52,528 nt of DNA from Polyangiales bacterium (GCA_038231275.1 JBBRLQ010000044.1:1-52528), one strand, 5' to 3'. Positions 8,925 through 46,808 are shown, counted from the stretch's first letter. A program made the numbers and translations. The notes: generated by a model from the sequence alone, not told the origin.

Positions 8925-10130
<1,206 letters not shown>

Positions 10131-10178
10131 ATGCTCGGGTTACCACGACATTGTTTCGTGTGCTAAGGATTGTTGCGC

Positions 10179-13026: not shown

Positions 13027-13632
13027 CTACCCGCCCCACCGCCGATTCGGCCCGACGTCCGCGTGCACGAACCAGTCGTGCTCCTGCGTGTAGACGCCGA
13101 CGCCGCCGTCCCAACCGAGCGCGCGGATCTCCCTTTCGAGCTCGCGCGGGTCGACGCCGCGCTCTTCGTTCGTGGGGACGATCCGGAAATCGACGGCGTG
13201 GCCAAGTGAATGTTGGCTGTGCGACGCGACGTGGTGGCCCTTCTTGCGCATCATCTCGTTCAGCTTCGGGCTCCGGAAGCCGCTCACGAGTTCGATGCGA
13301 ACCGCGTTGCCGGCGTCGCCGTGGCGCTCGGCGAGGCGGCGCAGCAGATCGAGGAGGCGCGGGTCCATCTCGTGCGACGAGCCGGTCACGCGATCGGCGA
13401 GGAGCGCGGCGAACCGCTCGGCGGGTGGCGACGTGTCGTCGAGGAGGACGCGCTCGTCCGTGTGCGTCTGCACCAGCGTCGCCAAGAGCGGCGCGCGCGC
13501 GGCGTGCGCAGCGGACTTGCGCGAGGCGAGGCCCATCCCGTGCGGCACTGGGCCTTCCGCGGCGGTCACGCGCGCCACGAAGGCGCCGGCGAGCGCGGCG
13601 ATCCCGACGGCCACGACGAGGCGCATTTCCAC
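13027..13632 (-). CDS. YcbK/DUF882-like (M15A) zinc peptidase
   Basis: MDPRLLDLL, SGFRS, SQHSLGHAVDF, GGVGVY, FVHAD; GTG 13632 lies 6 nt after TAGACT (alternatives 13638, 13626). Confidence 0.85.
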   Translation of the reverse strand: MEMRLVVAVGIAALAGAFVARVTAAEGPVPHGMGLASRKSAAHAARAPLLATLVQTHTDERVLLDDTSPPAERFAALLADRVTGSSHEMDPRLLDLLRRLAERHGDAGNAVRIELVSGFRSPKLNEMMRKKGHHVASHSQHSLGHAVDFRIVPTNEERGVDPRELEREIRALGWDGGVGVYTQEHDWFVHADVGPNRRWGG

Positions 13633-13688
13633 GTGCACAGTCTAGCGCGGCCGTGCGGGAAGGCCGAGCTCTCGGCGACGTTTCCGCG

Positions 13689-16082
13689 TCAGGGCCGCCG
13701 CGGGTCGAAGCGGGAGCGCATGCCCTCGAAGAGCTTCGAGAACGTGTCGTCCACGAGGTGCGAGCCCTTCGCCCACGCGCTCGTGCGGAAAGGAAGCGCG
13801 GACTCGAACATCATCCACAGCGACTCGTCGTGCAGGCGATGCGGCCCCTCCGCCTTCTCCTCGCTCAGGTCCCAGATCGCGTCGTACGTCGACGTGGACA
13901 CGCCGTGCGACGTGAGGAGGGGCGTCAGGAAGGTGCAGCCCGGATCGTAGCCGTGCGACGGATGCGGGGTCGCGATGACACCGTTGATCTCGCTCGCCGC
14001 GTTGCGGTGCATGAACGGCGGCCGGAAGCTGTGCTCGAGGACGTCCCACCGCCCCGGGAAAATGACGAAGTCGGCAACGGCGCGGCCGTGATCGTCGAGC
14101 GGCGCGGTGAGCACCGTGAGGATCGACGGATCGGGGTGATCGAATTTGACCGATCCCATCGGGCTGAAGAGAGACAGGTCGTACGAGTACGGGACGTGCG
14201 CGCCGTGCCACGCGACGACGTCGAAGGCCGAGTGCTCTTGCGTCGCCCCGAAGAGGTTCCCGCCGAGCTTCGTGATGAGCTGGAAGCCGTCGGGGCAGAG
14301 GCGATCCTCGTACGACGCCGTCGGCGCGAGGAAGTGGCGCGCGTCGGCGAGGCCGTTCGAGCCGATGGGGCCGCGCTCGGGGAGGCGGAGGCGGCGGCCG
14401 TACACCTCGAGCATCCAGCCGCGTCCTTCTCCCTCGGCGAATCCGACAGCGAACTTGATCGCGCGCGGAATGATCGCGATCGATCCCGGCGGGACGCGCA
14501 GCCACCCGAGCTCTGTGCGGAGCTCGAGGGTGCCGCTCTGCGGGACGAGGAGCAGATCGCCGTCCGCGCTCGAAAACGCGCGATCGATCATGTCTGCGTT
14601 CGAGGCGTACATGTGCACGAGATAGCCGGGACCCGACGTCGGATCGCCGGCGCCGCCGAGCGTCGCGAGCCCATCGACGAAATCGATGCGCGCGGGCGCC
14701 GCGGGGATCGGCATCGGTCGCCACCGCGTCCGGTTCGGGGTCACCGCCTCGAGCGGAGACAAGAACGCGCCAGGCGCGAGCGGCACCAGCTCTCCATGCG
14801 AAAACGCTGCGCGGACGCGGTAGAGCCACGCGCGCGAGCTCTCGGCGTTGCGAACGGTGAACGGCGTGCCGTTGACGAGCTCGGGGACGAGCCCGTACGG
14901 GCTCAGGCGCGGCGCGTTCTGCCGTCGGGGGAGGGCGCCGGGGAGGGCTTCGGACTCATGGGTCCCACCAAATCCGGGCTGCGTGGCGAGGCCCTCGGGC
15001 CCACGAAGGGTCGAGGTCGAGGTCGAGGTCGAGATCGGAGCGAAGGCCCGCTCGATCATCGCGGTGAGAGACGCCCGCTCGAGCGCCCGCGGACGAAGCT
15101 CCGAATTGGCCAGCAGTGCGTCCACGACGCGCGGGATGCCCTCGTGCGGCATGCCTAGCGCGCTGAGGCTCGTCGCGACGCCGGTCGCGCGCGCGAGCTG
15201 ATCGAGCGCCGTCACCGGGTCCACCACGCCAAGCGCCCGCGCGAGCGCGCTCATCGCCTCGGGCGCCGCCTCACGATGAAACCGCACCACGTGAGGCAGC
15301 ATCGCGGCGTGCGTCTGCGCGTGCGGCAGATCGAACATCCCGCCGAGCACGTGGCAAATCTTGTGATGGAGCCCTGCGCCGGAGTCCGAGAACGCCGCGC
15401 CCGCGAGGTACGCTCCTTCGAGCCCTAGCTCACGCGCCTCGGCGTCGCCCGGGTCCTCCGCGAGCCGTCGCAGGCTCGGCGCGATCAGGCCCAGCGCGGC
15501 CTCGGCGACGACGTGCGTCGCGCGATCGGCGTCGTTCACCCACAGCGCCTCGACCGCGTGCGCCATCGCGTTCCACAGACTCGGGAGCGCCACGCCCCGC
15601 GGCAGGCTCGCGACGCGATCGGGATCGTAGACGATGACGGCGGCACGAACACGCTCGTCGCTCCCCGTCCGCTTCTCGCCGCCGGCCGTCACTCCGTACA
15701 CCGCGGTCATCTCCGATCCCGAGTACGTCGTCGGCACCGCGACGATCCGAATGCTCGTCTCGAGCGCGAGCGCCTTCGCCAGGCCGATCGCGGACCCGCC
15801 ACCCAGCGCGAGCACGACATCCGCGCCGGACGCGTCGAGCGCACGTCGCGCGGCCTTCACCGTCTCGACCGGCACATGCTCACGCGCCTCCGCGAAGACC
15901 CCTGCCGCGCGATCCTCCAGCCGAGCGCTCAGGTGCGCCGCGTCCTTCACGCGCCCTGGCGTGCACACGACGAGCACCTTCGTCGCGCCGAGCTCTTCCA
16001 CGACGCCGCGCAGCTCTTCGGAGCTCCCGACGCCGAACACGATCGTGGACGTCCCGCGCCGAATCGAAAAATGCCGTGCCAT
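13689..16082 (-). CDS. hmgA: maleylacetate reductase-like / homogentisate 1,2-dioxygenase fusion
   Basis: N-half: GGGSAIGLAKA, PTTYSGSEMT, NAMAHAVEA, GLHHKICHVLGG, LPHAQTH. C-half: SEALPGALP, WLYR, LPERGPIGSNGLA, FDVVAWHG, FDHPDPSILTVLT, RPPFMHRN..SE, SHG. Confidence 0.9.
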   Translation of the reverse strand: MARHFSIRRGTSTIVFGVGSSEELRGVVEELGATKVLVVCTPGRVKDAAHLSARLEDRAAGVFAEAREHVPVETVKAARRALDASGADVVLALGGGSAIGLAKALALETSIRIVAVPTTYSGSEMTAVYGVTAGGEKRTGSDERVRAAVIVYDPDRVASLPRGVALPSLWNAMAHAVEALWVNDADRATHVVAEAALGLIAPSLRRLAEDPGDAEARELGLEGAYLAGAAFSDSGAGLHHKICHVLGGMFDLPHAQTHAAMLPHVVRFHREAAPEAMSALARALGVVDPVTALDQLARATGVATSLSALGMPHEGIPRVVDALLANSELRPRALERASLTAMIERAFAPISTSTSTSTLRGPEGLATQPGFGGTHESEALPGALPRRQNAPRLSPYGLVPELVNGTPFTVRNAESSRAWLYRVRAAFSHGELVPLAPGAFLSPLEAVTPNRTRWRPMPIPAAPARIDFVDGLATLGGAGDPTSGPGYLVHMYASNADMIDRAFSSADGDLLLVPQSGTLELRTELGWLRVPPGSIAIIPRAIKFAVGFAEGEGRGWMLEVYGRRLRLPERGPIGSNGLADARHFLAPTASYEDRLCPDGFQLITKLGGNLFGATQEHSAFDVVAWHGAHVPYSYDLSLFSPMGSVKFDHPDPSILTVLTAPLDDHGRAVADFVIFPGRWDVLEHSFRPPFMHRNAASEINGVIATPHPSHGYDPGCTFLTPLLTSHGVSTSTYDAIWDLSEEKAEGPHRLHDESLWMMFESALPFRTSAWAKGSHLVDDTFSKLFEGMRSRFDPRRP

Positions 16083-16187
16083 CGCCGCCTGCCTTGTGCG
16101 CTTCGCGCGAGCGCCTATGCTCTCCGCCCAAGCAGCAGCATAGGTGAGGAGGACGATCGTGAAGCTCCATTTCCACTATCTCCCGCG

Positions 16188-17696
16188 GTGAGCGCGTTTC
16201 CCGAGACGATCCCGGCGCTCCTCGAGTGGCGCGCCGCGCGCGAGCCGAAGCGTGCCTGGCTCTTCTTCGAGGAGGCTTCGTGGACGCTCGCCGACGTGAA
16301 GCGCGAGGTCGATCGGTTCGCCGTTGGGCTCGCGACGCGCGGCGTCGTGAAGGGGGACCGCGTCGCGATCCTGCTCGGAAATCGCCCCGAGACGCTCTTC
16401 ACGTGGCTCGCGGCCAATCGAATCGGAGCGATCGCGGCGATCCTCAACCCGGCGTACAAGCAGGCCGAGCTGGTCGGTGTCTTCCGACTCATCCAGCCTC
16501 GCATCGTGGTCACCGACGAGCATCGCGCGCTCGTCGAGGCGGCGTTCACGGAGCTCCCCGCCGCGCCGAAGATCGCGACGCCCGCAGAGCTCCCCGAAGG
16601 CGGGTCCCCGCCACGTGTCGTCGTCAAGCCGGACGACGTGTGCGTCCTCATTGCGACGTCGGGGACGACCGGCGCACCGAAAGCGGTGATGCAAACGCAC
16701 CGCGCGTACACGCTGACGGCGGAGGCGTTCCCGGCGTGGCTCGGCCTGACCGACGACGACCGGCTGCTCGCTCCGCTCCCGTTTTTCCACGTCAACGCGC
16801 AGGCGTACTCGGCGATGGGCGCGCTCGCGACGGGGTCCCTCGCGATCCAGCGAAAATTCTCGGCGTCGCGCTTCTGGGAAGAGGCGCGCGCGCTCGGGGC
16901 GACGCAGTTCAACGCGGTGGGGGCGATGATGCACATCCTGCTCCGCACCGAGGCGCGCGCGGCGGATCGCGAGCACGCGATCCGCATCTGCTACGGCGCC
17001 CTCGCGTTGCCGAAGGCGACCCACCGCGCGTTCGAGGAGCGCTTCGGCCTGGCGCTGACCGTCGGCTACGGAATGAGCGAAACGACGTTCGGCACGATCT
17101 GGCCGCTCGGCGAGGCGCCGCGCTACGGCACCATCGGACGCCTCCGCCAGCACCCTCGCCTCGGCGAAATAAACCGCGCGCGCATCGTCCGCGACGACGG
17201 CAAGGACGCCTCGGACGGCGAGGCCGGCGAGCTGTGGCTGTCGAATCCCGGAACGATGGCCGGCTACTGGAACGATTCCGCGCAATCGAACGTCGCCCTC
17301 GACGGCGGATGGCTCCACACCGGCGACCTCGTGCGCCGCGACGGGGACGACACGTTCACGTTCGTGTCGCGAAAGAAGGACGTCATCCGGCGCCGCGGCG
17401 AGAACGTCACCTCCGCCGAGATCGAGGGCGTGCTCGCCGCGTTCGACGGCGTGGCAGAGGTGGCCGTGATTGCCGTCCCGTCGGACCTCGGCGAGGACGA
17501 CATCGCGGCCTACGTGGCTCCGCTCCCAGGGCGCACGCTCGACGTGGAGCAGCTTCGCGCGTGGGCGAAGGAGCGCTTGGCAGATTTCAAGGTGCCCTCG
17601 TCGTTCCACGTCCGCGACGCCCTGCCGAAGACGGCCACGGCGCGGATCGCGAAGCATCTCCTTCGCCCCGAGCGGCCCGACCCGTCCGCGAAATAG
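16188..17696 (+). CDS. acyl-CoA ligase (CaiC-like ANL adenylating enzyme)
   Basis: TSGTTGAPK, PFFHVNAQ, FSASRFW, GYGMSE, HTGD, RRRGENV, PKTATARI. Confidence 0.92.
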   Translation: MSAFPETIPALLEWRAAREPKRAWLFFEEASWTLADVKREVDRFAVGLATRGVVKGDRVAILLGNRPETLFTWLAANRIGAIAAILNPAYKQAELVGVFRLIQPRIVVTDEHRALVEAAFTELPAAPKIATPAELPEGGSPPRVVVKPDDVCVLIATSGTTGAPKAVMQTHRAYTLTAEAFPAWLGLTDDDRLLAPLPFFHVNAQAYSAMGALATGSLAIQRKFSASRFWEEARALGATQFNAVGAMMHILLRTEARAADREHAIRICYGALALPKATHRAFEERFGLALTVGYGMSETTFGTIWPLGEAPRYGTIGRLRQHPRLGEINRARIVRDDGKDASDGEAGELWLSNPGTMAGYWNDSAQSNVALDGGWLHTGDLVRRDGDDTFTFVSRKKDVIRRRGENVTSAEIEGVLAAFDGVAEVAVIAVPSDLGEDDIAAYVAPLPGRTLDVEQLRAWAKERLADFKVPSSFHVRDALPKTATARIAKHLLRPERPDPSAK

Positions 17697-26674: not shown

Positions 26675-29600
26675 CTAGCTCGCGGGCCTCACGCGCGTGC
26701 TGGCGAGGAACGCGTCGTCGGTCTTGTGCGCGTCGGCGACGAACGCGCCGTACTTGTCCTGCGCGATCGTGCCGGTCGTGATGCCGAGGACGAACTCCTC
26801 TTCGATCACGTTGCCGGTCACGCTGATCTTGCGACCCGCCTCGATGCTCGAGCCCTTCGTGTCGAAGGGACCGGGCGTGCGCACGACGCTCGCGCCCGGT
26901 GGGAGCTCGACGCGGCGGTGCGCGTGGTACTGGATGGCGTGGCTGATCGCGAGCGCGTTCTCGCGCGCGCTGCGGCTCGCGTAGGTCGCGCCGAGGGTCG
27001 TCACGAACGGGCGCGGGAACATCGTGTGGATCGGATCGATGCCAGGAAGCACCCACGTGCGCGCGGCAGCGGTGCCCTCTTGCTGCGCGTAGCCGGGGAT
27101 CGAGAGATCGGCGCGAAGGGCCACCTGCCACGAGCCCTCGCTCGAGGAGAGCTGCACGTCGTCGATGTTCGCGTACGGCACCCACGCGAGGGCGACGCCG
27201 CGTAGGGCCTTCTGGCGCTCGGCGCCGACGATGCGGACGAGCGCCTCGGCGAGCTCCTGCGCCGCGCGGCCGCGGAGGAGGACCGTGAGCGAGCCGCGCG
27301 CGTCACCCTTGGGGTCGACGGCGAGACGAATGTCGACCTCGTCGCGCTCGCCCTCGCCACCGGCGCTCGGCAGCGGCGCGATGCGTCCGTCGGCGTAGAG
27401 CGCCGCGCGTCCGCGAAGCTCGGGAGAGACGCGCCCCGCGGGGAGCGGCGGGCCTTGCACGTCGGCGTCGATCCATACGTCCTTGCCCTTCGCCGGATGC
27501 GCGATGGCGAGCGGATGCATGAAACGGCCAAAATGTGGGGGAAACGCCGGATCGGCGCTGAACGGATCGTTCTCGGCGACGACGACATCGACCGGAACAC
27601 CGAGCTCCCGCAGCGCGCGCGCGACGAGCCACGTGCGGCTCCCTTCGCTCGACGTCACGATCGTTCGCGCGGTCATCTGCTGCGGCCCATCGGAGCCGCC
27701 GGCGTCGAGCTCGATGAGGACGCCTGGCGAAGACTCCTTCACCGCTGTGCCGCTCGCTTCGACCACCGCCTCGACGATGCCCTCGGGCCCCGGCTTCTTC
27801 GCGGCGGCCGCGACGGTGCGCGCCCACTCTCCGATCTCCGGATCGTGCTCGTCGAGCGCCGCGAGCGTCTCGCGGAGTGCGCCGCCTACGTCCGTCCACT
27901 CGGCGGTGCCGAAGCTGACGCTCACGCTGCGGTCCATCTTGGGCACGCCGTCCTCGAGCCGGCGCACCGGACGATCGGCGAGTGACCACGTGAGCACGCG
28001 CGTGCCGGAGTCGTTTTTCTCCTGCGGCTTGCCGAGCATCGGGTGGCTCCACAAAGAACCACGCAGCCCCGCGGGGAGTCGCAGCTCGACGCTGGCCTGA
28101 TGCACCGCCGTGCGATCGCCGAGCAAGTCGGGCGTGTCGATGCCGACGTTGCCGGTGTCACCGGGGAGGGCCCACCCTTCGTAGATCGCCTCGACGCAGT
28201 CGCCTTGTTCGAGCTGCGACAAGTCCGCGTGGCTCTGCGCCGCGTGGGGCGTGCGCTCGGGGCTCAAGATGCGCCCGTCCTTCTTGAGGACGCGGCGCCT
28301 TAGAACGCGCATCACGTCGCGTCCGGAAAAATCGGGAGGCGTCGCCTGCGCGTTCTCCTCGACGTCGGTGGTGCCGCTCACGCGCCGCACGTCGTGCAGG
28401 ACGTAGTGCATGAGGCCGCTCGTCTCGACCTCGTACCGCTCGGTGTGGAGGAGGATCGCGGTCGGCGCGCTCGGGAGGATCGGGCTCTTGCGATCGTCCT
28501 CGGCGACCTTCTCGCTGAGGCCCTCGAGGGGCGCGAGCGGATCGTCGCCGAGGGCGCGGAGGAGCGTCGGGATGACGTGCGGCGCGTCGCGCGCGGTCAG
28601 CGCGGCGGCGAGGAGAGCCTTCTTGTCCTTGGGCAGATCGCTCGCGAAAATCGCAGTGAGCGTGCGCTCGCCGGGGAGCATGCGGCCGAGGAGGCGCGTC
28701 GCCGTCTGCGTGTCGCCGGCGGCGATCGCGTCGCGGAGGGAGACGGCCAGATAAATGTCGAGAGCGCCGAAGACGCCGCGCAGGCGCTCGAGCTCGGCCT
28801 CCGCGCCTTTGCGGTCGCCGCTCTGCCAGAGCGCGTCGTGGCAGTCCATCGATGCGCGGTTTGCTCCGCCTTGCGTGTCGCACGCGTAGGCGACGAGCTC
28901 GGCGCCGGTCCGCTCGAACGTCGCGCGCCCCGCGTCGTGGAGGAGCGAGGCACCGTCCAGCGGCCCCTTCGCGCGATCCCACGCGGCGCGCGCGCGATCG
29001 AACAGGCCCTCGCGTCCGCTCGTGGCGGCGTCGAAGACGTCGTAGAGGGGGAGCGCGTTTGGTCCTGCCTTCGCGCGATGCGTATCGAGATCGACCAGCG
29101 CCTCAATGCGCGCCTCGCTCTGTCCGCGACGCACGCCGGCCAACACCGCGTGCGCGATGGCGGCCTCCCACGACGTCGGCGACGCCTCGAGGACGCGCTC
29201 GTACGCCGCGCGCGCACGTTCGGCGCGATGCACCTGCGAGAGATCGCGCGCCGTCTCCACGGCGCGCGCGTACACGAGCGCCATCTCCGGCGGCGCGTTC
29301 GGGCGGGCGGCGTCCTTCGCGAGGACACGCTCCGCCGTTCGTCCGTCTCCCATCGCCAATGCGCCGGCCGCGACCGCGACCTTCTCGTCGTCGGTGCGCG
29401 GCGTTGGATAGACGATCGCGGTGCTCGTCGTCGCCTCTGCGGTCGCCGCGTCGCCGGCCTTGGGCGCGTGCGCTTCGAGGGGCTTTCCGTGCGCGTCCCA
29501 CGCACCGATCTGCACGACGTCGCCCTCGGTGTCCATTCCAACGCGCGCGACGATGCGCAGCGTGCCGGCCTTGCTGTCGACGCGTGCAAACCGAGCGACG

Positions 29601-30397
29601 TCGCCGCCGCCGAGCTCGTACGGACGATCGAGGACCACGCGCCCCCCGACCCGGAGCAGCGCCGGTCCCGTCGACCACAGCCCAACGCCGATCGTTCCCG
29701 CCTTCGGCACCTTCACGTCGACCACGACGTCGCGCACGCCGCGCAGCGCGCTGGCCGCTCCAAGATCGAGCGAGCAGCCGCGATCGTGCACGATCGCAGG
29801 CGGGAGCACCGTGCCGAAGGGGCCGGGCAGCGACGTGCCGCTGGGGATTTTCGCGTCGAATCGTTCCAGTGGATCGGGCGACGTCAGACCCGTCACCGGC
29901 GCCCACGCCATCGGTCCGAGGATCGTCGCCTCGCGCGCGCATCCGCTCGCCGCGCGCTGCTTGGCCGCCTCCGCCGCATCACCGCGGTGCTCGGCGAGCT
30001 TTTGCTTCGCCCGCGCGACGAGCCCAGGAACGAACGGATCGTCGGCAGTCGTGCGCAGCGCGCTGCCATCGTTCTTCGTCCGGAAGAGGAGCGCCGTGTC
30101 GTACCCCACCTCGCCGAGCCCGCTGACGTGTCGGAACACGAGCGAATCGAGCGCTGCCATCACCACAGGGAGCTGGTAGGCATCCCCCGACGACCGCCCC
30201 GCGAGATCGAGTGCCTTCAGGTAGCGATCGAGCGCGTCGCCCGGCGTTCCCGTGGCCTCGGCGCGCATCGCCGCGAGGAGCGGCGTCGTCAGATCGCTGT
30301 GTCCGGCGGCGCCAGGCGTCTTGGCGTCGTGTCCGCCGCACGCGGCGGCGGCGAGGGTGAGCGTCGCGAGCGCGACTCCTGCGATGGCGCGCTTCAC
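26675..30397 (-). CDS. large lipoprotein with TPR, DUF3857-like and degenerate transglutaminase-like domains
   Basis: Lipobox AAAC; LEQGDCVE, SEGSRTW at the usual GDC position, FMH, WIDAD; GTGA overlap with the upstream paralog. Confidence 0.75.
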   Translation of the reverse strand: MKRAIAGVALATLTLAAAACGGHDAKTPGAAGHSDLTTPLLAAMRAEATGTPGDALDRYLKALDLAGRSSGDAYQLPVVMAALDSLVFRHVSGLGEVGYDTALLFRTKNDGSALRTTADDPFVPGLVARAKQKLAEHRGDAAEAAKQRAASGCAREATILGPMAWAPVTGLTSPDPLERFDAKIPSGTSLPGPFGTVLPPAIVHDRGCSLDLGAASALRGVRDVVVDVKVPKAGTIGVGLWSTGPALLRVGGRVVLDRPYELGGGDVARFARVDSKAGTLRIVARVGMDTEGDVVQIGAWDAHGKPLEAHAPKAGDAATAEATTSTAIVYPTPRTDDEKVAVAAGALAMGDGRTAERVLAKDAARPNAPPEMALVYARAVETARDLSQVHRAERARAAYERVLEASPTSWEAAIAHAVLAGVRRGQSEARIEALVDLDTHRAKAGPNALPLYDVFDAATSGREGLFDRARAAWDRAKGPLDGASLLHDAGRATFERTGAELVAYACDTQGGANRASMDCHDALWQSGDRKGAEAELERLRGVFGALDIYLAVSLRDAIAAGDTQTATRLLGRMLPGERTLTAIFASDLPKDKKALLAAALTARDAPHVIPTLLRALGDDPLAPLEGLSEKVAEDDRKSPILPSAPTAILLHTERYEVETSGLMHYVLHDVRRVSGTTDVEENAQATPPDFSGRDVMRVLRRRVLKKDGRILSPERTPHAAQSHADLSQLEQGDCVEAIYEGWALPGDTGNVGIDTPDLLGDRTAVHQASVELRLPAGLRGSLWSHPMLGKPQEKNDSGTRVLTWSLADRPVRRLEDGVPKMDRSVSVSFGTAEWTDVGGALRETLAALDEHDPEIGEWARTVAAAAKKPGPEGIVEAVVEASGTAVKESSPGVLIELDAGGSDGPQQMTARTIVTSSEGSRTWLVARALRELGVPVDVVVAENDPFSADPAFPPHFGRFMHPLAIAHPAKGKDVWIDADVQGPPLPAGRVSPELRGRAALYADGRIAPLPSAGGEGERDEVDIRLAVDPKGDARGSLTVLLRGRAAQELAEALVRIVGAERQKALRGVALAWVPYANIDDVQLSSSEGSWQVALRADLSIPGYAQQEGTAAARTWVLPGIDPIHTMFPRPFVTTLGATYASRSARENALAISHAIQYHAHRRVELPPGASVVRTPGPFDTKGSSIEAGRKISVTGNVIEEEFVLGITTGTIAQDKYGAFVADAHKTDDAFLASTRVRPAS

Positions 30398-33300
30398 TTC
30401 GTCCCCCGCACGTCCGCGCCCGGCTGGAGCCGCACGCCTTTGTGGAGGAGCGAGTCCATGCGCTGAATCCACGCGCGCCACGCCGGGTATTTGTCCGGCG
30501 GAATCAGGTCGAGATCGAACACCACGTTCCTCTTGATCACGACGACGCGAGGATCTTTCGCGTCGCGGGCGAACTCCAGGTGGGCTTTGCCGAACTCGCC
30601 GCCGTTCTCGTCGCCGCCGGGCGGGAGCTCTCCCCAGTGGAAGCCCGGCGGCGCGACGACGCGGATCGTGCGGTTGTTGTGGCTCGGCGCGAAGAACGGC
30701 GGGAGGCTCACCGGCTGCGTGCGCACCACGAGCGGCGCGATCTGCGACGCGAGCGTCTGGCTCGGCGAGATGGGGACGACGAGGTCCCCTTGCTCGTGCC
30801 GCGCGAGCCCGTCGGAGTGCGCCTTGTAGCCGACCTTCGCCTGGCCGCCGGGCAGGTCGCCGTCGAAGTCGACCTTCTTGTCGACCTCCACCGTCGGAAA
30901 CCACCCGCCAACGAGGTTGTCCTCGACGTACTGCATGCGCCCGTCCGGCTGCCCCGCGTACGTGCGCAGCCAGAACGCGCCGTCGCCGGTGTGACGCTCT
31001 TCGCCGACGAGATCGCCGGAGCCGTCGCCGTGCAGCGTGATCGTCCAATTCACGTCGGCGCCGTGATCGTCGGGCGAGCTCGACGGCAGGCGCACGATCT
31101 CGGCGGGCCCGTCCATGCGCAGCGCCGTCGCGCGGGCGTCCATCGACGGGATCGGGCCGAGGCGCGATTGCGGGCTCGTCGCGTCGAGGTAGGTGCCTCC
31201 ATTCGGGCCGGGGAGAAATGCGATGCCGTGATCGAACATCGGGATCGCGGTGTTCTTCGCGAGGACGACCGACGGCATGTTCGTCATGCGCGTCTGCACC
31301 ATGACCTCCTGCGCCTCGATGCCGACGCTGCGAAGGAGCGTGATGAGGAGCATCGCCTTGTCGTCGCAGTCGCCTTCGCGACGCGCGAGGAGCTGCTGCG
31401 GACGGTTCGGGAGCCACCACTCGCCGGAGACGTAGTTCACGTAGCGGATCTGGTCGGCGACGAAGTTGAAGAGCGCGCGGAGCTTCTCGTCCTTCGTGCG
31501 CTTGCCCTTCGTGAGCTCGGCGGCGAGGCGCCGCACCTCGGCGTCGGGCTCGGTGAAGCCGCGGATCGCCTCGGCGTACCAGGTCCGGAAATCGCCCCAC
31601 GACTTGAACGTCGAGCCGACGACCACCGGCACGAGCTCGCTCATCTGCGGCGCCAGCGGCTCCTCGGGGATGACGACCGGCTTGTCCCAGACGAGCTCGA
31701 TGATGTGCCGGCCGTTCTCGTCCTTCTCGGTGCGCTTCTGCGCCTGGCCGTTGATGACGTCGACGTAGAGCGGGTGCGACGTCGGCGCGATGATGACGTC
31801 CTGGTTGTAGAGGAGCGGGTGCGTACTCGGCGCGCCGGCGTAGTCGAGGAAGTAGAACGGCGCGTCGCCCCGGCCACCGACGGCGGTGCTCGTCCAGTTG
31901 CGGATCGCGACCTCGACGACGTCACCGGGCGCGAGATCGGGCCAGCGGATCCGCGGACGTCGCCCTTCGTTGTGCTCCTCGGTCGGGAACGCCGTGCCGC
32001 CGTCCTTCCGGTACACGCGCGCGCGGAGGATCTCGGTCAAGTCTCCCTCGGCGGGGATGTCCTCGAAGAGCTCGTTCTGCGTGCGCGGCGCGATGACGAT
32101 CTCGCGCGCGTAGTGAATGAGCTGCGAGACGCGGTTGTCGGGCTGCATGATGACCGCGCGGAGAAAATGCAGATCGCGCGCGGAGACGTCCTGCGCGCCC
32201 TTGGCGAGCGCACCTTGGCGACGCGCGAGGATCGTCGCGATCGGCGTGATGTACTTCTCGTCCTCGCGCGATTCGGGCTCGGCGTCGGCCGCCGCGCGGA
32301 GCTTCATCTCGGCGCGCGTGCGGGCGTCGCCGGGGGAGAGCTCGCGCGCGCGACGGAGCGCGGCGAGGACGGGCGAGCCGGCGCCGCGCGCGGCCTCGGG
32401 AACGAGCGCGATCTCGTCGGCGAGGCCGGTCCACGTGTCGGGCCGGTTCGGCGCCCATTCGACGAGCTTCGCGAACAGCGCGCGGGCCACGTCGTGCGCG
32501 CCGGCGCGGGAGACGTCGTGCGCGATGCGAAGCGCCTCGTCGGCGTCGTCGAGACTGCCGTCGAACACGAGCTTGGCGGCCTGGACCACGCCCTCGCGTC
32601 CGGTCTGCGAGCGCGCCGCGACTAGGTGAGAGCCGGCGAGACCGCGCCGCGCGAGCTCCTCGCTGGCCTCGAGCGCGAGCTTGGGATCGTACGCGGCCGC
32701 GGCGACGACGAGATCGCTCATCATCGCGTTCGGCGCGGCCTTTGGATTCGCGCGGAAGAACGCCGTCACGTCACGCAGCGATTTGGTGCGCAGCGCGTCG
32801 GTGCCGAGCCCGTCGTCGATGTGCGCGCGAATCAGCACGGCCTCGGCGTCGCTCGCCTCGAGCTTGGCGCCGCGCATCGCGGCCATCGCCCAGTCGACCA
32901 TCTTGGCGGTGAGGTGCTCGGCGATGATGCGGCGATCGACGAACGCCCTCGTCTTCGCGTCGTTCTCCTTGGCGGAGCGATCGCGCGCGAGGTTCAGCCA
33001 GCCGCTGCGGTTCGCGCCGGAGGGGGCGACCCAGCCGGCCATCGCGAGACGATCGGCGTCGAGATCCTTCTTGCGCGTGAGCGCGTCGAGCAGGCCCGGC
33101 GCGCGCGGGCTCTTCGCGTCGTCGGCGCCGCCGAGCGTCCGGAGGACCACGGCGTCGAGCACCTGCTCGGGATCGGCGCCGGCGTCGACGACGAGCGCGC
33201 GCGACAAAGGCGTCGACTCTTTGCTTACGCGCGTCTTGCCGGCCGGCGCGAGGCCGCGCAGATCGGGGCTCGTCTCCAGCGTGAGCGGCTCGCCCTTCGC

Positions 33301-34140
33301 GTCCGTGAGGCGCATTCGAACGCGTCCCTCGTCGGGCAGCGCGCCGGTGCAAATTTTCGCCCAAATGACGTGATTCCCTGCCGTCGCGTCCACACGACCC
33401 GCGAGCCGATCGAGCGTCGCCTTTGTCGCGATCTCGTCGGCGCGCCCGATCTCGAGCGCGTCGAACATGAGCCGCACGCTCCCGGTCGCCGCGAGGTGCA
33501 CGACGATCGGCTGCGCCTTGTCGACGGTGACGCGCGACGCGACGATCGAGCAGCTCTCCCGTCGCGGGTGAACGAAGAGATCGAGCGGCACGCCGCGCGC
33601 GGTGACGTACGACGCCGGCAGCGCGCGCCACGTGACCTCCACGGTGCCCCACGAGTAACCCACCTTCTGATCCGAGAACGTCGCGCCCGGCGCCTCGGGC
33701 CCTTCCTTCGCAGCGAGGCCGCCGCCGGTGTCCCGGAATGGACCGAGCAGCGCCATGCCCGTCACGAGACCGCGCGCGCGATCGGCGCTGCTCCCGGCGG
33801 CCGATCCCTCGTCGGCGGCGAGCGCGCGCGCGGCGAGCTTTGCTTCTTCGCGAACGTCGGCTGCGAGAGAGGTGACCTCGCCGATCTCCTCGAGCACGCG
33901 CCGCGCCTTTCCGTAGGTGCCGCGCGACTCGAGCGCGCCGATTGTCGCGATGGCTGCCAGCACGTCGCGCTCGGTCGCCTTGGGCGCGTTCGCGCGCGCT
34001 TTCTGCGCGTCGATCATCGCGTCCGGGGTGACCTCGGTCCACCGAGGACCAGCGACGGCGGCTCCGGCGTGCGGCACGCCGAGGGCGAGGGACGAGAGGC
34101 CCGCGAGGGCACCGAAGTACGCGAAGGTTCGTCGGCTCAT
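30394..34140 (-). CDS. secreted TPR + DUF3857 + transglutaminase-core protein
   Basis: Signal peptide; LAPGDVVE, IRY, REGDCDDKA, FDHGI, YLDAT triad. Confidence 0.87.
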   Translation of the reverse strand: MSRRTFAYFGALAGLSSLALGVPHAGAAVAGPRWTEVTPDAMIDAQKARANAPKATERDVLAAIATIGALESRGTYGKARRVLEEIGEVTSLAADVREEAKLAARALAADEGSAAGSSADRARGLVTGMALLGPFRDTGGGLAAKEGPEAPGATFSDQKVGYSWGTVEVTWRALPASYVTARGVPLDLFVHPRRESCSIVASRVTVDKAQPIVVHLAATGSVRLMFDALEIGRADEIATKATLDRLAGRVDATAGNHVIWAKICTGALPDEGRVRMRLTDAKGEPLTLETSPDLRGLAPAGKTRVSKESTPLSRALVVDAGADPEQVLDAVVLRTLGGADDAKSPRAPGLLDALTRKKDLDADRLAMAGWVAPSGANRSGWLNLARDRSAKENDAKTRAFVDRRIIAEHLTAKMVDWAMAAMRGAKLEASDAEAVLIRAHIDDGLGTDALRTKSLRDVTAFFRANPKAAPNAMMSDLVVAAAAYDPKLALEASEELARRGLAGSHLVAARSQTGREGVVQAAKLVFDGSLDDADEALRIAHDVSRAGAHDVARALFAKLVEWAPNRPDTWTGLADEIALVPEAARGAGSPVLAALRRARELSPGDARTRAEMKLRAAADAEPESREDEKYITPIATILARRQGALAKGAQDVSARDLHFLRAVIMQPDNRVSQLIHYAREIVIAPRTQNELFEDIPAEGDLTEILRARVYRKDGGTAFPTEEHNEGRRPRIRWPDLAPGDVVEVAIRNWTSTAVGGRGDAPFYFLDYAGAPSTHPLLYNQDVIIAPTSHPLYVDVINGQAQKRTEKDENGRHIIELVWDKPVVIPEEPLAPQMSELVPVVVGSTFKSWGDFRTWYAEAIRGFTEPDAEVRRLAAELTKGKRTKDEKLRALFNFVADQIRYVNYVSGEWWLPNRPQQLLARREGDCDDKAMLLITLLRSVGIEAQEVMVQTRMTNMPSVVLAKNTAIPMFDHGIAFLPGPNGGTYLDATSPQSRLGPIPSMDARATALRMDGPAEIVRLPSSSPDDHGADVNWTITLHGDGSGDLVGEERHTGDGAFWLRTYAGQPDGRMQYVEDNLVGGWFPTVEVDKKVDFDGDLPGGQAKVGYKAHSDGLARHEQGDLVVPISPSQTLASQIAPLVVRTQPVSLPPFFAPSHNNRTIRVVAPPGFHWGELPPGGDENGGEFGKAHLEFARDAKDPRVVVIKRNVVFDLDLIPPDKYPAWRAWIQRMDSLLHKGVRLQPGADVRGTK

Positions 34141-34390
34141 GAAGGTCTGAAACGTCTACTACGCTCGGCATGGACTAAGGAGCAGAAGTCAGGCGCGTGG
34201 CGTGTGATCGCGGTGAGCACAGGGACGGCCAGGATCCGTCGAGGGTGGATCCTTCTCGCTCCCCGGTTGACCGCCCTCGCGAGTGCTCGCGCGTGGCTCC
34301 GTCGTAACTCGTCGAAACTCATATCAACGCACGTTGGCCTACATCGTGCTGAAGAGGTCGGTACACCCCCCTAACCGGAGAACCTTCACC

Positions 34391-38986: not shown

Positions 38987-39166
38987 CCGAGGTCGCCGCC
39001 AGCAAGAGCGCAAGGGGCCAGGGGCGTCGTCGGTAGCGCGAGCGACCGGCGCCGCCGACGGATGGGGCAGCAGCGAGGGCGATCCGCCAGAAACGGCGGG
39101 TCGCCCTCGTTTTCTTTGGCGGTTGGTGGTAGTTCGGGACCCCTCTAATTCCCGGAGGAATTCCCC

Positions 39167-40456
<1,290 letters not shown>

Positions 40457-40510
40457 AGAAGGCGTCCGTTCCCCTCGACGGACACCTGCCCACATGTCAT
40501 ACCTTGGCCC

Positions 40511-41533
40511 ATGAAATGGGGTCGGGCTGCCTTTCTTCTGTTTTACACAGTGCTTACGGCAGCTTGCGGTGGATCGGCGCCGTCGGAAGACGCGAGCTCG
40601 GAAGACGATCTCTCGGGCACGCATCGCTGGTGCGACCCGCTCGGGAGGCGAACCCATCCTCTAGTTCTGGCCGTTGAGCCTGGCGCGAAGTCGAGCCCGT
40701 GGACGGACGCGATGGGCCAGGCCCATGCGAGCGTGCACGTCCTGCTCTACCAGATGGGCGCGGGACCGATCCTCGACGGGCTCGTCGCCGCGGCGCATGG
40801 CGGCCTCGACGTTCGCGTGATCCTCGACGCGTCGCAGAAGCCGGTGAACGACAAGTGGAAGACGCAGCTCGAAGCGGCGGGCGCGAAGGTGCTCTGGAGC
40901 GATCCGCAGTTCTCGTTCATGCACGCCAAGGTGATGATCGTCGACGGGGCGGTCGCGGTGATCTCCACCGGCAACTACGCGGCGACTCAGCTCGATGCCG
41001 AGCGCAACTACGTTATGACCAATACCGATCCCCATGACGTCGCCGCACTCGGTGCGCTCTTCGACGCCGATTTTTCACGAACGTCGCCCGATCTCTCGTG
41101 CACGCGCCTCCTCGTCTCCCCGGTGAACGCGCGCGCGCGCATTCTGTCGGTCATCGGTACGGCGAAGAACGAGCTCCTCGTCGAGTCGATGCAGCTCGCC
41201 GACGCGGACGTGCGTGACGCGATCGCCGCGCGCAAGGACGCGGGCGTCGCGGTTCGTGTGATCCTCGCCGATCCGAGCTGGATCGCCGCGAACAGCGCGG
41301 CGGCCACGTTCTTGTCGGATCGCGGGATCGAGGCACGTCGGATCGTCTCGCCAAAGGTCCACGTGAAATCGATCCTCGTCGACGGCAAAGTCGCCTACGC
41401 CGGCTCCGAGAATCTCAGCCAGACGTCGCTCGACAAGAATCGAGAGGTCGGCCTCCTCGTGACCGAGAAGGCGAACGTGGCCGAGATGCACGCGACCTTC
41501 GAGACCGACTGGGCCGCCGCCACGGCGTTCTAG
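40511..41533 (+). CDS. phospholipase D family lipoprotein
   Basis: Lipobox TAAC; two HKD motifs (HAKVMIVD..STGN, HVKSILVD..GSEN). Confidence 0.87.
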   Translation: MKWGRAAFLLFYTVLTAACGGSAPSEDASSEDDLSGTHRWCDPLGRRTHPLVLAVEPGAKSSPWTDAMGQAHASVHVLLYQMGAGPILDGLVAAAHGGLDVRVILDASQKPVNDKWKTQLEAAGAKVLWSDPQFSFMHAKVMIVDGAVAVISTGNYAATQLDAERNYVMTNTDPHDVAALGALFDADFSRTSPDLSCTRLLVSPVNARARILSVIGTAKNELLVESMQLADADVRDAIAARKDAGVAVRVILADPSWIAANSAAATFLSDRGIEARRIVSPKVHVKSILVDGKVAYAGSENLSQTSLDKNREVGLLVTEKANVAEMHATFETDWAAATAF

Positions 41534-41603
41534 CCTTCAGCTTCTGCTCTAGCCCCGCGCCGCCTGTGGTACACCTTCGCCCGAAAAACGAAGGAGTATC
41601 CCC

Positions 41604-42542
41604 ATGCCCACGCGCAAGAAGATCGGTCTGATTGGTGCCGGAAACATCGGCGGCGAGCTCGCGCGTCTCCTCGCGAACAAAGAGCTCGGCGACGTTTGGC
41701 TCTACGACATCCCCGCGAAGGAGAACTTCGCGAAGGGCAAGGCGCTCGATCTCGAGCAGAACGGCGCCGTCCTCGGCTATGACTCGCACATTCGCGGGAC
41801 CGCCAACTGGGCGGACCTCGAAGGGGCCGACGTCCTCATCGTGACCGCGGGCATCCCGCGCAAGCCCGGCCAGTCGCGCGACGATCTCGTGGCGACGAAC
41901 CTCCCGATCATTCGCGACGTCGCGAACAACGCGAAGAAACACGCGCCCAACGCGTTCACGATCGTCATCTCGAACCCGCTCGACGCGATGGTCTACGAGT
42001 TCAAGCGCGTCACCGGCTGCGCGAAGGGCATGGCGGTCGGCATGGCCGGTGTCCTCGACAGCGCGCGCTTCCAGCTCTTCCTCGCGCGCGAGGCGGGCGT
42101 CAGCGTGAAGGACGTCCGCGCGATGGTGCTTGGCGGCCACGGAGACGACATGGTGCCGGTGCTCTCCATGACGACGATCAATGGCGTCCCCGTCTCGTCG
42201 CTCATCGCGAAGGACAAGATCGGCGCCATCATCGAGCGCACCCGCAAGGGCGGCGGCGAGATCGTGAACCTGATGGGGACGAGCGCGTACTACGCGCCGG
42301 CGTCATCGGCCGTCGCGATGGCGGAGGCGTACCTGCACGACCAGAAGCGCCTTCTCGCGGGCGCGGCGTACCTGGACGGCGAGTTCGGCTACAAGGATCT
42401 CTTCATGGGCGTGCCGGTCGTGATCGGCGGCAAGGGCGTCGAGAAGATCATCGAGATCCCGCTCAGCGCCGAGGAGAAGGCGATGCTCGAGAAGAGCGCG
42501 AAGAGCGTTCAGAGCGTCGTCGACGTCGTCAAGAAGTCCTGA
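41604..42542 (+). CDS. mdh: malate dehydrogenase (LDH-like)
   Basis: GAGNIG, PRKPGQSRDDL, GMAGVLDSAR, GGHGD; RBS AAGGAG. Confidence 0.96.
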   Translation: MPTRKKIGLIGAGNIGGELARLLANKELGDVWLYDIPAKENFAKGKALDLEQNGAVLGYDSHIRGTANWADLEGADVLIVTAGIPRKPGQSRDDLVATNLPIIRDVANNAKKHAPNAFTIVISNPLDAMVYEFKRVTGCAKGMAVGMAGVLDSARFQLFLAREAGVSVKDVRAMVLGGHGDDMVPVLSMTTINGVPVSSLIAKDKIGAIIERTRKGGGEIVNLMGTSAYYAPASSAVAMAEAYLHDQKRLLAGAAYLDGEFGYKDLFMGVPVVIGGKGVEKIIEIPLSAEEKAMLEKSAKSVQSVVDVVKKS

Positions 42543-42581
42543 TCGAGAGAAGGCGCGATGCGGCGCGGGAGGGTCGAGCCC

Positions 42582-43430
42582 TCACCGCGCCGCGCGTCGT
42601 TTGGCGAGCTCGGCGTCGGTGTCCCAGAAATCGTAGGGGATGATCGTGAGCCCGGTGAAGAGGCTCCACCTGCGCTGCTGCCGGAGCGCGCCGAGGTCCA
42701 TCCCTGCGTCGAACATCAGCCACGGGCGAGGGGAGTAGGTGAGCCCGGTGAGGATTCCGGCGTCGGCCGGCGCGATGCGCGCGTGGCCGTCCGCGAAAGA
42801 GTACCCCTCGAGGATCGCGCCGAAGTCGCCGGCGAGCGGCGCCGCGAGCGCGAGCGTCACGAAGGGCTGGTAGCTGGGCGAGAGATCGAACTCCCAGACG
42901 TTGAGGCCGCCGTTGAGATCGAAGTGGAACGGGCCGACGTCTTTCGACGCGTAGCCCCAGAACGACGCGTCGTACGCGAACGGAAAGTCCGGGTGCCGGT
43001 CCCAGCTCGGAATGCTCAGCGCGGCGGACACCGCGAGCGACGGCCACAGCTCGGTCTGGTCGAGGAGCTTGGGCTTGAGGCCGATCGAGATGTCGTCGAG
43101 GAAGCGCGCCTCGCTCGCCACTTTCCCCGTGGTGAGCACCTTTCCGTTGGAGCCGACCTGGAGCTGCAGGCGCTCGAAGAGCGAGAGCTTCGCGAGGAAC
43201 GGCTGCGCGTGGACGTACCCGCCGCTCGTGATGCTCCGCGCGAGGTAGCCGGCCTCGATTTCGAGCGCGCCCGGCGGGACGAGGTCCGCCGTGCACGAGA
43301 TGGTCGGGCGGCACGGCAGGACGCGATACGTCTCGTCGGGCGGTCCGGCCTCTGCCCGGCGAGCAAACCCCAGCGCCGCAGCAAAAAGGACGAGGAGCAC
43401 GAGGCAAAAACGAGCCACCGTGTCCCACAT
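42582..43430 (-). CDS. putative outer membrane beta-barrel (MetA/phenol-degradation transporter-like)
   Basis: Signal peptide; RPT....DLVPPGALEIEAG; amphipathic strands. Confidence 0.65.
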   Translation of the reverse strand: MWDTVARFCLVLLVLFAAALGFARRAEAGPPDETYRVLPCRPTISCTADLVPPGALEIEAGYLARSITSGGYVHAQPFLAKLSLFERLQLQVGSNGKVLTTGKVASEARFLDDISIGLKPKLLDQTELWPSLAVSAALSIPSWDRHPDFPFAYDASFWGYASKDVGPFHFDLNGGLNVWEFDLSPSYQPFVTLALAAPLAGDFGAILEGYSFADGHARIAPADAGILTGLTYSPRPWLMFDAGMDLGALRQQRRWSLFTGLTIIPYDFWDTDAELAKRRAAR

Positions 43431-43464
43431 AGCCGAGGGCGGCGGGGGACGCTACGGTGTACGG

Positions 43465-43896
43465 GTGCGCCCTTCTCCCGATCAACTCCACGCGTTTCTG
43501 AAGCGCTACGCGGCGGCCGGATTTCCGTATTCGAACACGATCGTGCCGCTGCTGGATCGGACGGACGCGGCGAAGGTCGATCTCTTCGACGGCGCGTCGC
43601 TGACGGCATTGCGTGTCACGTACCGCGCGCGTGCGCGGCTGCTCGCGTCGCGCCGCCCACCGCCGACGACCGCGACGATGGCCGCCGAGGTCCTCGCGCT
43701 GTCGCGCGCGCTCGACGACGCGAGGGAGCAGCCGGTTCGCATCTGGCGGATCGCTCCACACGCCGGGCCTTCGTTCCACGTCTTCGAGCTGGCGGAGGAT
43801 CGGTGCCTCGCGGGCGTGGTTGCCTCGACGGATCACTCCGGGCGCTCGGTGATCAAGCAGGACGTGAGCCTCGGCGTCCTCTTGCTGCCGGCCTGA
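43465..43896 (+). CDS. hypothetical protein
   Basis: ORF fills the gap; GTG 43465 lies 6 nt after TACGGT. Confidence 0.55.
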   Translation: MRPSPDQLHAFLKRYAAAGFPYSNTIVPLLDRTDAAKVDLFDGASLTALRVTYRARARLLASRRPPPTTATMAAEVLALSRALDDAREQPVRIWRIAPHAGPSFHVFELAEDRCLAGVVASTDHSGRSVIKQDVSLGVLLLPA

Positions 43897-43975
43897 CCGA
43901 TCGTAAGGTGTCGCGAAACGGCCCATCGCGCGCTGCCCCTTCCGCTCAGGGGTTGACCTACCGTACGTTGGCCGG

Positions 43976-44509: not shown

Positions 44510-44517
44510 GCGAGCTT

Positions 44518-45498: not shown

Positions 45499-45593
45499 CG
45501 GGCGGGACCATAATCCATCTCCCGGCGAATCAGAGCCTGATTCTCGCCGATCGGGGGCCTTCGCGGCGCCGACTCTGTGGTAGCGTCCGGCCC

Positions 45594-46804
<1,211 letters not shown>

Positions 46805-46808
<4 letters not shown>

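Follow-up and report, generated by a model that had tools for sequence, protein, structure and literature searches.

Positions 13689–16082 of a 52,528-nucleotide stretch from a Polyangiales bacterium (GCA_038231275.1, JBBRLQ010000044.1:1-52528; below, at its full length, the window, from whose first letter all positions are counted) carry, on the minus strand, a gene in which a maleylacetate reductase (MAR) is joined to a dioxygenase of the family of homogentisate 1,2-dioxygenase (HGD). The gene is a single uninterrupted open reading frame (ORF) that begins with ATG and ends with TGA, and encodes a protein of 797 amino acids (P0001). In Pfam searches its N-terminal half matches Fe-ADH (residues 12–154, 1.9e-25) and ADH_Fe_C (residues 171–346, 2.4e-37), and its C-terminal half matches HgmA_N (residues 368–636, 9.6e-91, 304 bits) and HgmA_C (residues 638–792, 7.2e-37, 127 bits). 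An original prediction, made from the DNA alone, had described one 797-residue frame with a MAR-like domain followed by the HGD HmgA; the ORF and the Pfam matches bear out this architecture, and the joining of a MAR and an HGD-family dioxygenase in one gene is confirmed at the sequence level.

Architecture and distribution of the fusion

The MAR domain, a member of the iron-containing alcohol dehydrogenase (Fe-ADH) superfamily, spans residues 10–348 (15039–16055, minus strand) as delimited by Pfam, alignment to solved structures and fold match. Its closest relatives are MARs: the solved MAR-subfamily proteins HxqD (3jzd), GraC (3w5s) and MacA (3hl0) align with the N-terminal half at 237–278 bits (E 1e-81 to 4e-69), whereas other Fe-ADH structures reach at most 86 bits (~1e-23). 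Metal-free MARs have Asn or Arg in place of the metal-binding Asp, and His243 of GraC is the proposed substrate-contacting or catalytic His, as described in PMC5125639. Both features of the MAR subfamily (cd08177) are found in P0001, where Asn171, in the segment NAMAHAVE (15570–15572), occupies the metal-binding Asp site of metal-dependent Fe-ADHs, and His244 (15351–15353) aligns with GraC His243 if a 20-residue tag offset is assumed for 3w5s_A. The dinucleotide-binding motif GGGS (residues 94–97; 15792–15803) is kept relative to the MAR structures, and all three elements are invariant in 48 aligned fusions. In its full-length alignment and in its GGGS motif, Asn and His243 equivalent the domain resembles the MARs of hydroxyquinol and chloroaromatic pathways (HxqD 3JZD, GraC 3W5S, MacA 3HL0, LinF and TfdF); it differs from them in being covalently joined to a ring-cleavage enzyme, with the free acid, the methyl ester and maleylacetoacetate as candidate substrates. 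By these marks the N-terminal half looks like a working MAR. In a tree of MAR halves with at least 300 aligned residues, a filter that admitted only 2 of the 12 triple-fusion MAR domains described below, the 15 fusion rows group together with 97–98% support.

The dioxygenase domain, of bicupin HgmA fold, covers residues 369–795 (13698–14978, minus strand). Both of its Pfam domains score above the gathering threshold, and the 2-His-1-Glu triad and the HGD fold place it in the HGD superfamily. MARs are dimeric enzymes, and HGD is reported to form a hexamer (bioRxiv 10.64898/2026.06.02.729205). An AlphaFold model of P0001, computed with an alignment of the 48 fusions, has a mean predicted local distance difference test score (pLDDT) of 81 and a predicted template modelling score (pTM) of 0.61. 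The modelled N-terminal half superposes on the MAR structures with template modelling scores (TM) of 0.92–0.94, and the modelled C-terminal half on the HGD structures 4AQ2, 3ZDS and 1EY2 with TM of 0.86–0.88. The catalytic residues of both halves are invariant across the 48 fusions, and both halves look catalytically intact.

Between the two domains lies a linker (residues 347–368, FAPISTSTSTSTLRGPEGLATQ; 14979–15044, minus strand), delimited by comparison of 121 fusions. The (ST)n linker of the original prediction, placed at ~15007–15035, is found as (ST)4 (residues 351–358), encoded by the perfect hexanucleotide repeat (TCGACC)x4 at 15009–15032. Its length is 22 amino acids in 74 of the 121 fusions; one part varies and is rich in Ala and Pro, the other, LRGPE..ATQ, is conserved, and an ST repeat is seen in none of 32 other fusion linkers compared. 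Since relatives have Ala/Pro-rich sequence of equal length at this place, the repeat is recent and in frame, and probably slippage-prone. The linker is modelled with low confidence, pLDDT falling below 50 at residues 353–355.

The fusion is not confined to this assembly. A search of 5.8 billion clustered proteins gave 472 matches among 8,000 candidates scored, and among the matches listed all 119 other clusters share the four-domain set at 60–80% identity over the full length (720–827 amino acids). The organisms named among these matches are Polyangiaceae, Labilithrix, Myxococcales and Deltaproteobacteria metagenome-assembled genomes (MAGs), and the fusion relatives listed bear only the database names 'homogentisate 1,2-dioxygenase' or 'iron-containing alcohol dehydrogenase'. 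A scan with one genome per species returned 27 loci, 17 of them with the fusion, all in Myxococcota-type MAGs; the other ten match the MAR half only. The recurrence of the architecture in other genomes, which the original prediction had proposed to look for, is thus observed, and the fusion is common in Myxococcota. The same data bear on the suspicion that the gene is an assembly or annotation artefact, or that one half is a decayed and inactive remnant. The junction recurs in all 119 other listed clusters and, independently, in 17 MAG loci, which excludes an assembly artefact, and the conserved linker length, the invariant catalytic residues and the confident folding of both domains in the model speak equally against decay, so that this explanation is effectively refuted. 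No description of a fusion between a MAR and an HGD-family enzyme was found in the literature, although the broadest search was too loose to prove absence. As judged by these comparisons, what appears to be new is the fusion itself, a new HGD-family clade and their occurrence in a phylum without an earlier description, while the enzyme families and the pathway logic are known ones.

The dioxygenase half and its departure from HmgA

The C-terminal half aligns end to end with the P. putida and human HGDs (E ~1e-104, identity ~42–46%), and has in common with these canonical enzymes (human 1EY2; P. putida HmgA 3ZDS, 4AQ2 and 4AQ6) the bicupin fold, the iron triad and an equivalent of His292. The His/Glu/His ligands noticed at the outset (HRN..SE and SHG) are kept and correspond in the alignments to His692 (human His335; 14007–14009), which is invariant in 121 of 121 fusions, Glu698 (human Glu341; 13989–13991) and His726 (human His371; 13905–13907). 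His649 (human His292; 14136–14138) is likewise kept in 121 of 121 fusions, and Pro652 and Pro689, beside the triad and His649, are kept in P0001.

Beyond these residues the domain departs from HmgA. On TIGR01015, the NCBI equivalog model for hmgA, P0001 scores 446.1 bits, below the curated cutoff of 510.75, and three further members of its clade score 417–475 bits, whereas the controls pass: 674 bits for the HmgA of locus L028, encoded inside a phhA-hppD-hmgA-fahA-maiA operon on a Sphingobium plasmid, 676 for that of L029 and 579 for P0150. Residues were counted in 170 aligned HgmA domains, from which two fragments without a full iron triad had been removed. Human His365 is described as hydrogen-bonded to Glu341 with a proposed role in proton transfer (bioRxiv 10.64898/2026.06.02.729205; PMC4019311). 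Its position holds Ser or Thr in 121 of 121 MAR-HmgA fusions and in 12 of 12 proteins classed as MAR-X-HmgA, and is Thr720 in P0001 (13923–13925).

A second difference lies in the active-site lid. According to the same two sources, a hydrogen bond links His292 to the substrate's distal hydroxyl, and the lid, at about residues 347–355, closes over the substrate; contact of P. putida Tyr346 with homogentisate is reported to fold the lid (PMC6337169), and the lid Tyr to bind the homogentisate carboxylate (PMC11634970). In P0001 the lid (residues 699–712, INGVIATPHPSHGY; 13947–13988) is shorter than the canonical one and lacks the tyrosine of G.Y[DE]AK (human Tyr350, P. putida Tyr346): where operon-validated controls read GEYDAK...SLH...HGPD, the fusion reads ATPHP-SHGY...FLT...HGVS. 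Of the 18 sequences that have His where human HGD has His365, 15 contain the lid motif Y[DEGS][AGS][KR], as against none of the 145 with Ser or Thr and one of five with another residue. Clade-specific changes also flank the ligands (human Met343 to Asn700 and Ser363 to Phe718), with a further one from Ala to Trp756. The last lid residue, Tyr712 (13947–13949, human Phe357 position), is specific to the clade, being Tyr in 119 of 121 fusions of ~800 amino acids and mostly Phe in all other groups, including triple fusions and canonical HmgAs. PcMHQD2 of P. chrysosporium, which has Phe at the lid Tyr, is reported not to convert homogentisate and to cleave methoxy- and dimethoxyhydroquinone (PMC11634970). 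The loss of the lid Tyr throughout the fusion clade therefore argues against a carboxylated substrate, and an altered lid that disfavours homogentisate on an HGD-family fold is a feature common to P0001 and the methoxyhydroquinone 1,2-dioxygenases.

Phylogeny separates the same groups. In a maximum-likelihood tree of 67 dioxygenase domains (24 sampled fusions and all other classes, at 380 or more aligned positions) the rows split 47 to 20, both sides having Shimodaira–Hasegawa-like approximate likelihood ratio test (SH-aLRT) support of 98. The larger side, here termed clade B, holds every one of the 36 rows with a MAR, together with six proteins that have other N-terminal extensions (the hydrolase fusion P0140 among them) and five that stand alone; each of the 47 has Ser or Thr in place of human His365. 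The other 20 rows form the canonical side, which is without MAR fusions, and 14 of them have His there. Judged by its score, alignment and position in the tree, the C-terminal half is not a canonical HmgA and belongs to a distinct HGD-family clade with no characterised member. Plasmid tblastn searches with the C-terminal half and with the clade-B stand-alone proteins P0141 and P0138 returned only canonical hmgA, at no more than 47% identity. As a separate observation, the recently solved 496-residue 'homogentisate 1,2-dioxygenase' of PDB entry 9pz4 carries Gln in place of His365 and shows no lid Tyr in the alignment, and may be another non-canonical HGD-family enzyme.

These residues bear directly on the function first proposed for the gene, a reductive bypass of homogentisate degradation in which the dioxygenase would form maleylacetoacetate and the MAR domain would reduce it to succinylacetoacetate without the isomerase MaiA, hydrolysis, or activation by coenzyme A (CoA) and thiolysis, then giving succinyl and acetyl units. 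Much in the dioxygenase is compatible with such a pathway, namely the degree of identity to true HGDs and the retention of the triad, His649, Pro652 and Pro689; the clade-specific Tyr712 might stand in for the lid Tyr, and on chemical grounds maleylacetoacetate shares its cis-enone-carboxylate head with maleylacetate. Against it stand the score below the hmgA cutoff, the separate clade, the replacement of His365 and the lid motif that is missing from every Ser/Thr-type sequence and whose loss is reported to abolish homogentisate turnover in PcMHQD2 (PMC11634970). We consider the bypass unlikely. Of the original prediction, one part stands, in that the architecture is naturally read as coupling cleavage of the ring with reduction of a maleyl C=C bond, whereas homogentisate as the substrate is not supported by the cutoff, the clade, the lid or Thr720; the aside that a different hydroquinone would be allowed by divergent residues close to the ligands has become the better-supported reading.

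Triple fusions and gene neighbourhood

An exhaustive search of representative proteins gave 15,789 matches at E <=1e-3, 150 of them listed, and among those listed are proteins of 949–1,191 amino acids that combine a MAR, an Abhydrolase_2/DLH-like hydrolase and HgmA. The hydrolase forms the middle domain in 11 of the 12 proteins classed as MAR-X-HmgA, with the serine motif GFSQG in all 11, the twelfth (P0083) being an ordinary double fusion; P0140 is a fusion of hydrolase and dioxygenase without a MAR. In the ESM Atlas a triple-fusion cluster has 116 members, 100% Bacteria and most commonly Myxococcota, and a weaker match, to be taken as no more than a lead (score 0.84), is to a cluster of 54 members combining MAR and hydrolase. 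Triple and double fusions are intermixed in the dioxygenase tree, and the double fusion P0129 (861 amino acids) has a 79-residue linker resembling a C-terminal remnant of the hydrolase; together these suggest that the esterase-like domain has been gained or lost repeatedly. An extra-long triple fusion, P0137 (1191 amino acids), groups with the Ascomycota-like P0144.

For the homogentisate bypass the triple fusions could in principle supply a C–C hydrolase in place of FahA. Against this counts the GFSQG motif in the fused hydrolases, which is that of the Abhydrolase_2 carboxylesterase/thioesterase family, known for esterases rather than C–C hydrolases.

The fusion gene is separated by a divergent intergenic region of 105 bp (16083–16187, set by the ORF bounds) from a plus-strand gene for an AMP-forming acyl-CoA ligase (16188–17696; 502 amino acids, GTG start inferred; Pfam AMP-binding, 6.9e-70). 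A scan for sigma-70-type promoters found no match in this intergenic region, and a terminator scan gave three terminator-like matches, each within a coding region, where chance alone would give 1.0 +/- 0.9. The ligase has no assigned specificity, its best NCBIfam match being PRK06155 at ~364–365 bits against a cutoff of 722. Beyond it lie genes for an extracytoplasmic function (ECF) sigma factor and then a Hydrolase_4 alpha/beta-hydrolase, and downstream of the fusion, on the minus strand, is an M15/DUF882 peptidase gene (13027–13638).

Across the 17 fusion loci and the window, only two neighbours recur in flanks that are otherwise unconserved. A ligase of the same family is present in 12 of these 18 sequences, and in 11 of the 17 loci the gene immediately next to the fusion, in divergent orientation, encodes a glutathione S-transferase (GST) of ~240 amino acids. 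The window itself has no GST: a Pfam search of 40 best-coding ORFs and 139 other stop-to-stop ORFs of at least 150 amino acids in six frames found no GST, FAA-hydrolase or HPPD-type domain in it, and tblastn of the relatives' GSTs against it gave antisense artefacts only. We considered whether the neighbouring GST could be MaiA and rejected this assignment. Four adjacent GSTs score 50–73 bits on TIGR01262 against a cutoff of 171.05, and a fifth, non-adjacent one scores 67, where a true MaiA control scores 254; the neighbouring GST is 23% identical to the operon MaiA, and the solved structures that match it best are those of delta/theta GSTs (~100 bits; the zeta-class 1e6b reaches 60). Further GSTs near the fusion were seen in two loci, a ~350-residue protein with GST_N_2 and GST_C_2 domains (L007:12313-13386), a pair found in glutathionyl-hydroquinone reductases, and a fusion of a GST with an ABM monooxygenase domain (L011:3090-4202). 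Esterase genes occur sporadically: a PF00135 carboxylesterase gene directly follows the fusion in L003 and lies 5.7 kb downstream of it in L002, and in L012 there is an Abhydrolase_1 gene 1.2 kb downstream.

The neighbourhood offers the bypass some footing. The absence of maiA and fahA from the window, as stated in the original prediction, is upheld by Pfam and tblastn searches of the window, and the conserved AMP-forming ligase beside the fusion may serve to activate a dicarboxylic product. The argument for an isomerase-free pathway nevertheless holds only in part, since the absence covers 52 kb and flanks of at most 10 kb, and a GST, albeit not an orthologue of MaiA, adjoins 11 of the 17 fusions. 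No FAH or HPPD gene was found within ~7 kb in any of the 17 loci, so that hppD is near the fusion in none of them, unlike in the control operon. An elaborated form of the bypass, in which Tyr712 replaces the lid Tyr, homogentisate is still used and the CoA ligase feeds two rounds of thiolysis, would give Myxococcota a thiol-independent degradation of tyrosine free of MaiA and FahA; on the alignments and gene context we regard it as rather improbable. The further suggestion that decarboxylation to succinylacetone might furnish a weapon drew no support from any of the results.

The two recurring neighbours also allow for consecutive steps on some other aromatic compound, such as the tailoring or recycling of a myxobacterial secondary metabolite or quinone, with the GST and the CoA ligase serving that dedicated route and not general catabolism. 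This would fit a delta/theta-like GST and a ligase of no assigned specificity being the only conserved neighbours, the lack of a classical aromatic-catabolic cluster around the gene in any locus, and the apparent confinement of the family to Myxococcota among the named matches. The flanks, though, contain no polyketide synthase, non-ribosomal peptide synthetase or other biosynthetic genes and are otherwise unconserved housekeeping sequence, and the MAR and esterase fusion partners indicate a degradative route of the 3-oxoadipate type, so that a dedicated route of this kind is, in our estimation, quite unlikely.

Elsewhere in the window we note a partial gene at the left edge for a BcrAD/BadFG and DUF2229 'CoA enzyme activase' (2–2194), and an acyl-CoA dehydrogenase gene 3.5 kb downstream of the fusion (8925–10139). 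The order acyl-CoA dehydrogenase, CCA-adding enzyme, porin and fusion, together with the ECF sigma factor and Hydrolase_4 genes, is common only to the close relative L005. A central-metabolism block at 39149–47704 comprises genes for isocitrate dehydrogenase (39149–40456), a PLD-like protein (40457–41533), malate/lactate dehydrogenase (41553–42542) and the beta (within 45426–46808) and alpha (within 45584–47704) subunits of succinyl-CoA ligase, with FHA-domain and sigma-54-activator genes between. A region of ~3.8 kb (26.6–30.4 kb) holds only very long ORFs, without a Pfam match and with atypical codon-position GC; one example (26675–31921, minus strand; 1749 codons stop to stop) adjoins a 1254-residue transglutaminase-core ORF (30394–34155, minus strand).

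A candidate route for substituted hydroquinones

The closest precedent for the arrangement comes from fungi. A. niger MhdA (NRRL3_10111), annotated as a homogentisate 1,2-dioxygenase and 50.8% identical to A. nidulans HmgA, is reported as a purified enzyme to convert methoxyhydroquinone to 4-hydroxy-6-methoxy-6-oxohexa-2,4-dienoate, the monomethyl ester of maleylacetate; a MAR homologue (NRRL3_4956) is proposed there to reduce this product, and OmeA, an esterase for 4-oxo-monomethyl adipate whose gene adjoins mhdA, yields 3-oxoadipate (Lubbers et al. 2021, PMC8336404). PcMHQD1 and PcMHQD2 of P. chrysosporium are described as preferring methoxyhydroquinone (Kato et al. 2024, via PMC11634970), while bacterial cleavage of this compound is ascribed in the same review to an unrelated Fe(II) dioxygenase. 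The dioxygenase, reductase and esterase of the A. niger pathway, as reported, are matched by the three domains of the myxobacterial triple fusions. The fungal MhdA and PcMHQD enzymes have the HGD fold, and in PcMHQD2 loss of the lid Tyr is reported to go with lost turnover of homogentisate. In addition, P0144, a stand-alone member of clade B, is nearest, in the ESM Atlas, to Ascomycota HGD-family clusters of 483–484 amino acids, a size that fits the 55.5 kDa given for tagged MhdA (PMC8336404) and is only suggestive.

From the canonical HGDs P0001 differs in several ways. It is fused to a MAR, falls short of the TIGR01015 cutoff and lies in a separate clade; it has a shorter lid without Tyr350, Thr for His365, Asn for Met343 and Phe for Ser363, and its gene is not beside hppD, fahA or maiA. 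Another parallel is found in Sphingobium, where LinD (a GST), LinE (a ring-cleavage dioxygenase) and LinF (a MAR) act together (PMC5144681). As with the GST beside the fusion in 11 of 17 loci, a GST, a hydroquinone dioxygenase and a MAR there lead to 3-oxoadipate (PMC5144681). LinD differs in its length of 346 amino acids from the ~240-residue delta/theta-like GST of the fusion loci, and the window has none. PcpC, PcpA and PcpE form a further system of GST, dioxygenase and MAR, and the folds of LinE and PcpA differ from that of HGD.

On chemical reasoning, HGD-type cleavage between C1 and C2 of a hydroquinone with OH, OCH3 or Cl at C2 would give maleylacetate, its ester, or an acyl halide, where homogentisate would give maleylacetoacetate. 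We propose, as the most likely reading, that the fusion is a two-step module in which a substituted hydroquinone is opened to maleylacetate or its ester and then reduced to 3-oxoadipate or its ester. From the alignments and the fungal analogy we judge this proposal to be evenly poised between right and wrong. Its probable substrate is not homogentisate but a hydroquinone without a carboxyl group, for example methoxyhydroquinone. In the first step the C-terminal Fe(II) dioxygenase would open a 2-substituted hydroquinone without an acetate side chain, methoxyhydroquinone having the best precedent and chloro- or hydroxy-hydroquinone being alternatives, to yield maleylacetate or an ester of it. 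The N-terminal metal-free MAR domain would then use NAD(P)H to reduce the C=C bond of the maleyl group, giving 3-oxoadipate or its monoester, and the divergent acyl-CoA ligase may activate the acid for thiolysis. Fusion of the two domains would have the advantage of keeping a reactive, tautomerising ring-fission product from diffusing off. We infer every substrate, product and activity of the fusion given here.

Several observations weigh against the two-step module as proposed. Tyr712 could take over the binding of a carboxylate, and pLDDT falls below 50 near the iron site (residues 642–650, 680–693 and 723–728), so that pocket geometry offers no argument. Six of the 20 rows on the canonical side of the tree also have no His at the His365 position, which makes this residue alone not decisive for the substrate, and the change from Tyr to Phe in PcMHQD2 seems to lie in a lid of canonical type, just as P0159, with the PcMHQD2-like lid SFDAR, groups with the canonical side, so that methoxyhydroquinone activity may stem from another lineage. 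The PcMHQDs are reported to be inactive on hydroxyquinol (PMC11634970). Whereas the fungal enzymes, as described, are separate proteins, two domains are fused here and three in relatives, and the dioxygenases may not be orthologous. The hydrolase of the triple fusions belongs to Abhydrolase_2 and not to OmeA's type-B carboxylesterase family (PF00135), and P0001, a double fusion, has neither a hydrolase domain by Pfam nor an esterase domain of the OmeA type. Finally, neither within ~7 kb of the fusion in the 17 loci nor in the window was there a gene for a hydroquinone-forming (flavin) monooxygenase, a 3-oxoadipate CoA-transferase (PcaIJ) or a thiolase.

The features that set the fusion clade apart provide a simple sequence rule by which true HmgA may be told from look-alikes; it takes together the lid Tyr motif, the residue aligned with His365 and the cutoff of TIGR01015, and matters for the annotation of tyrosine catabolism in metagenomes. 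If the bypass first proposed for the gene were true, it would represent new chemistry of tyrosine degradation. If instead the fusion acts as the two-step module, Myxococcota would hold a widespread and unannotated route for hydroquinones derived from lignin or fungi, built on an HGD-fold dioxygenase, and the double and triple fusions would provide independent, cross-kingdom genomic support for a reductase step that has so far only been proposed in the fungal pathway.

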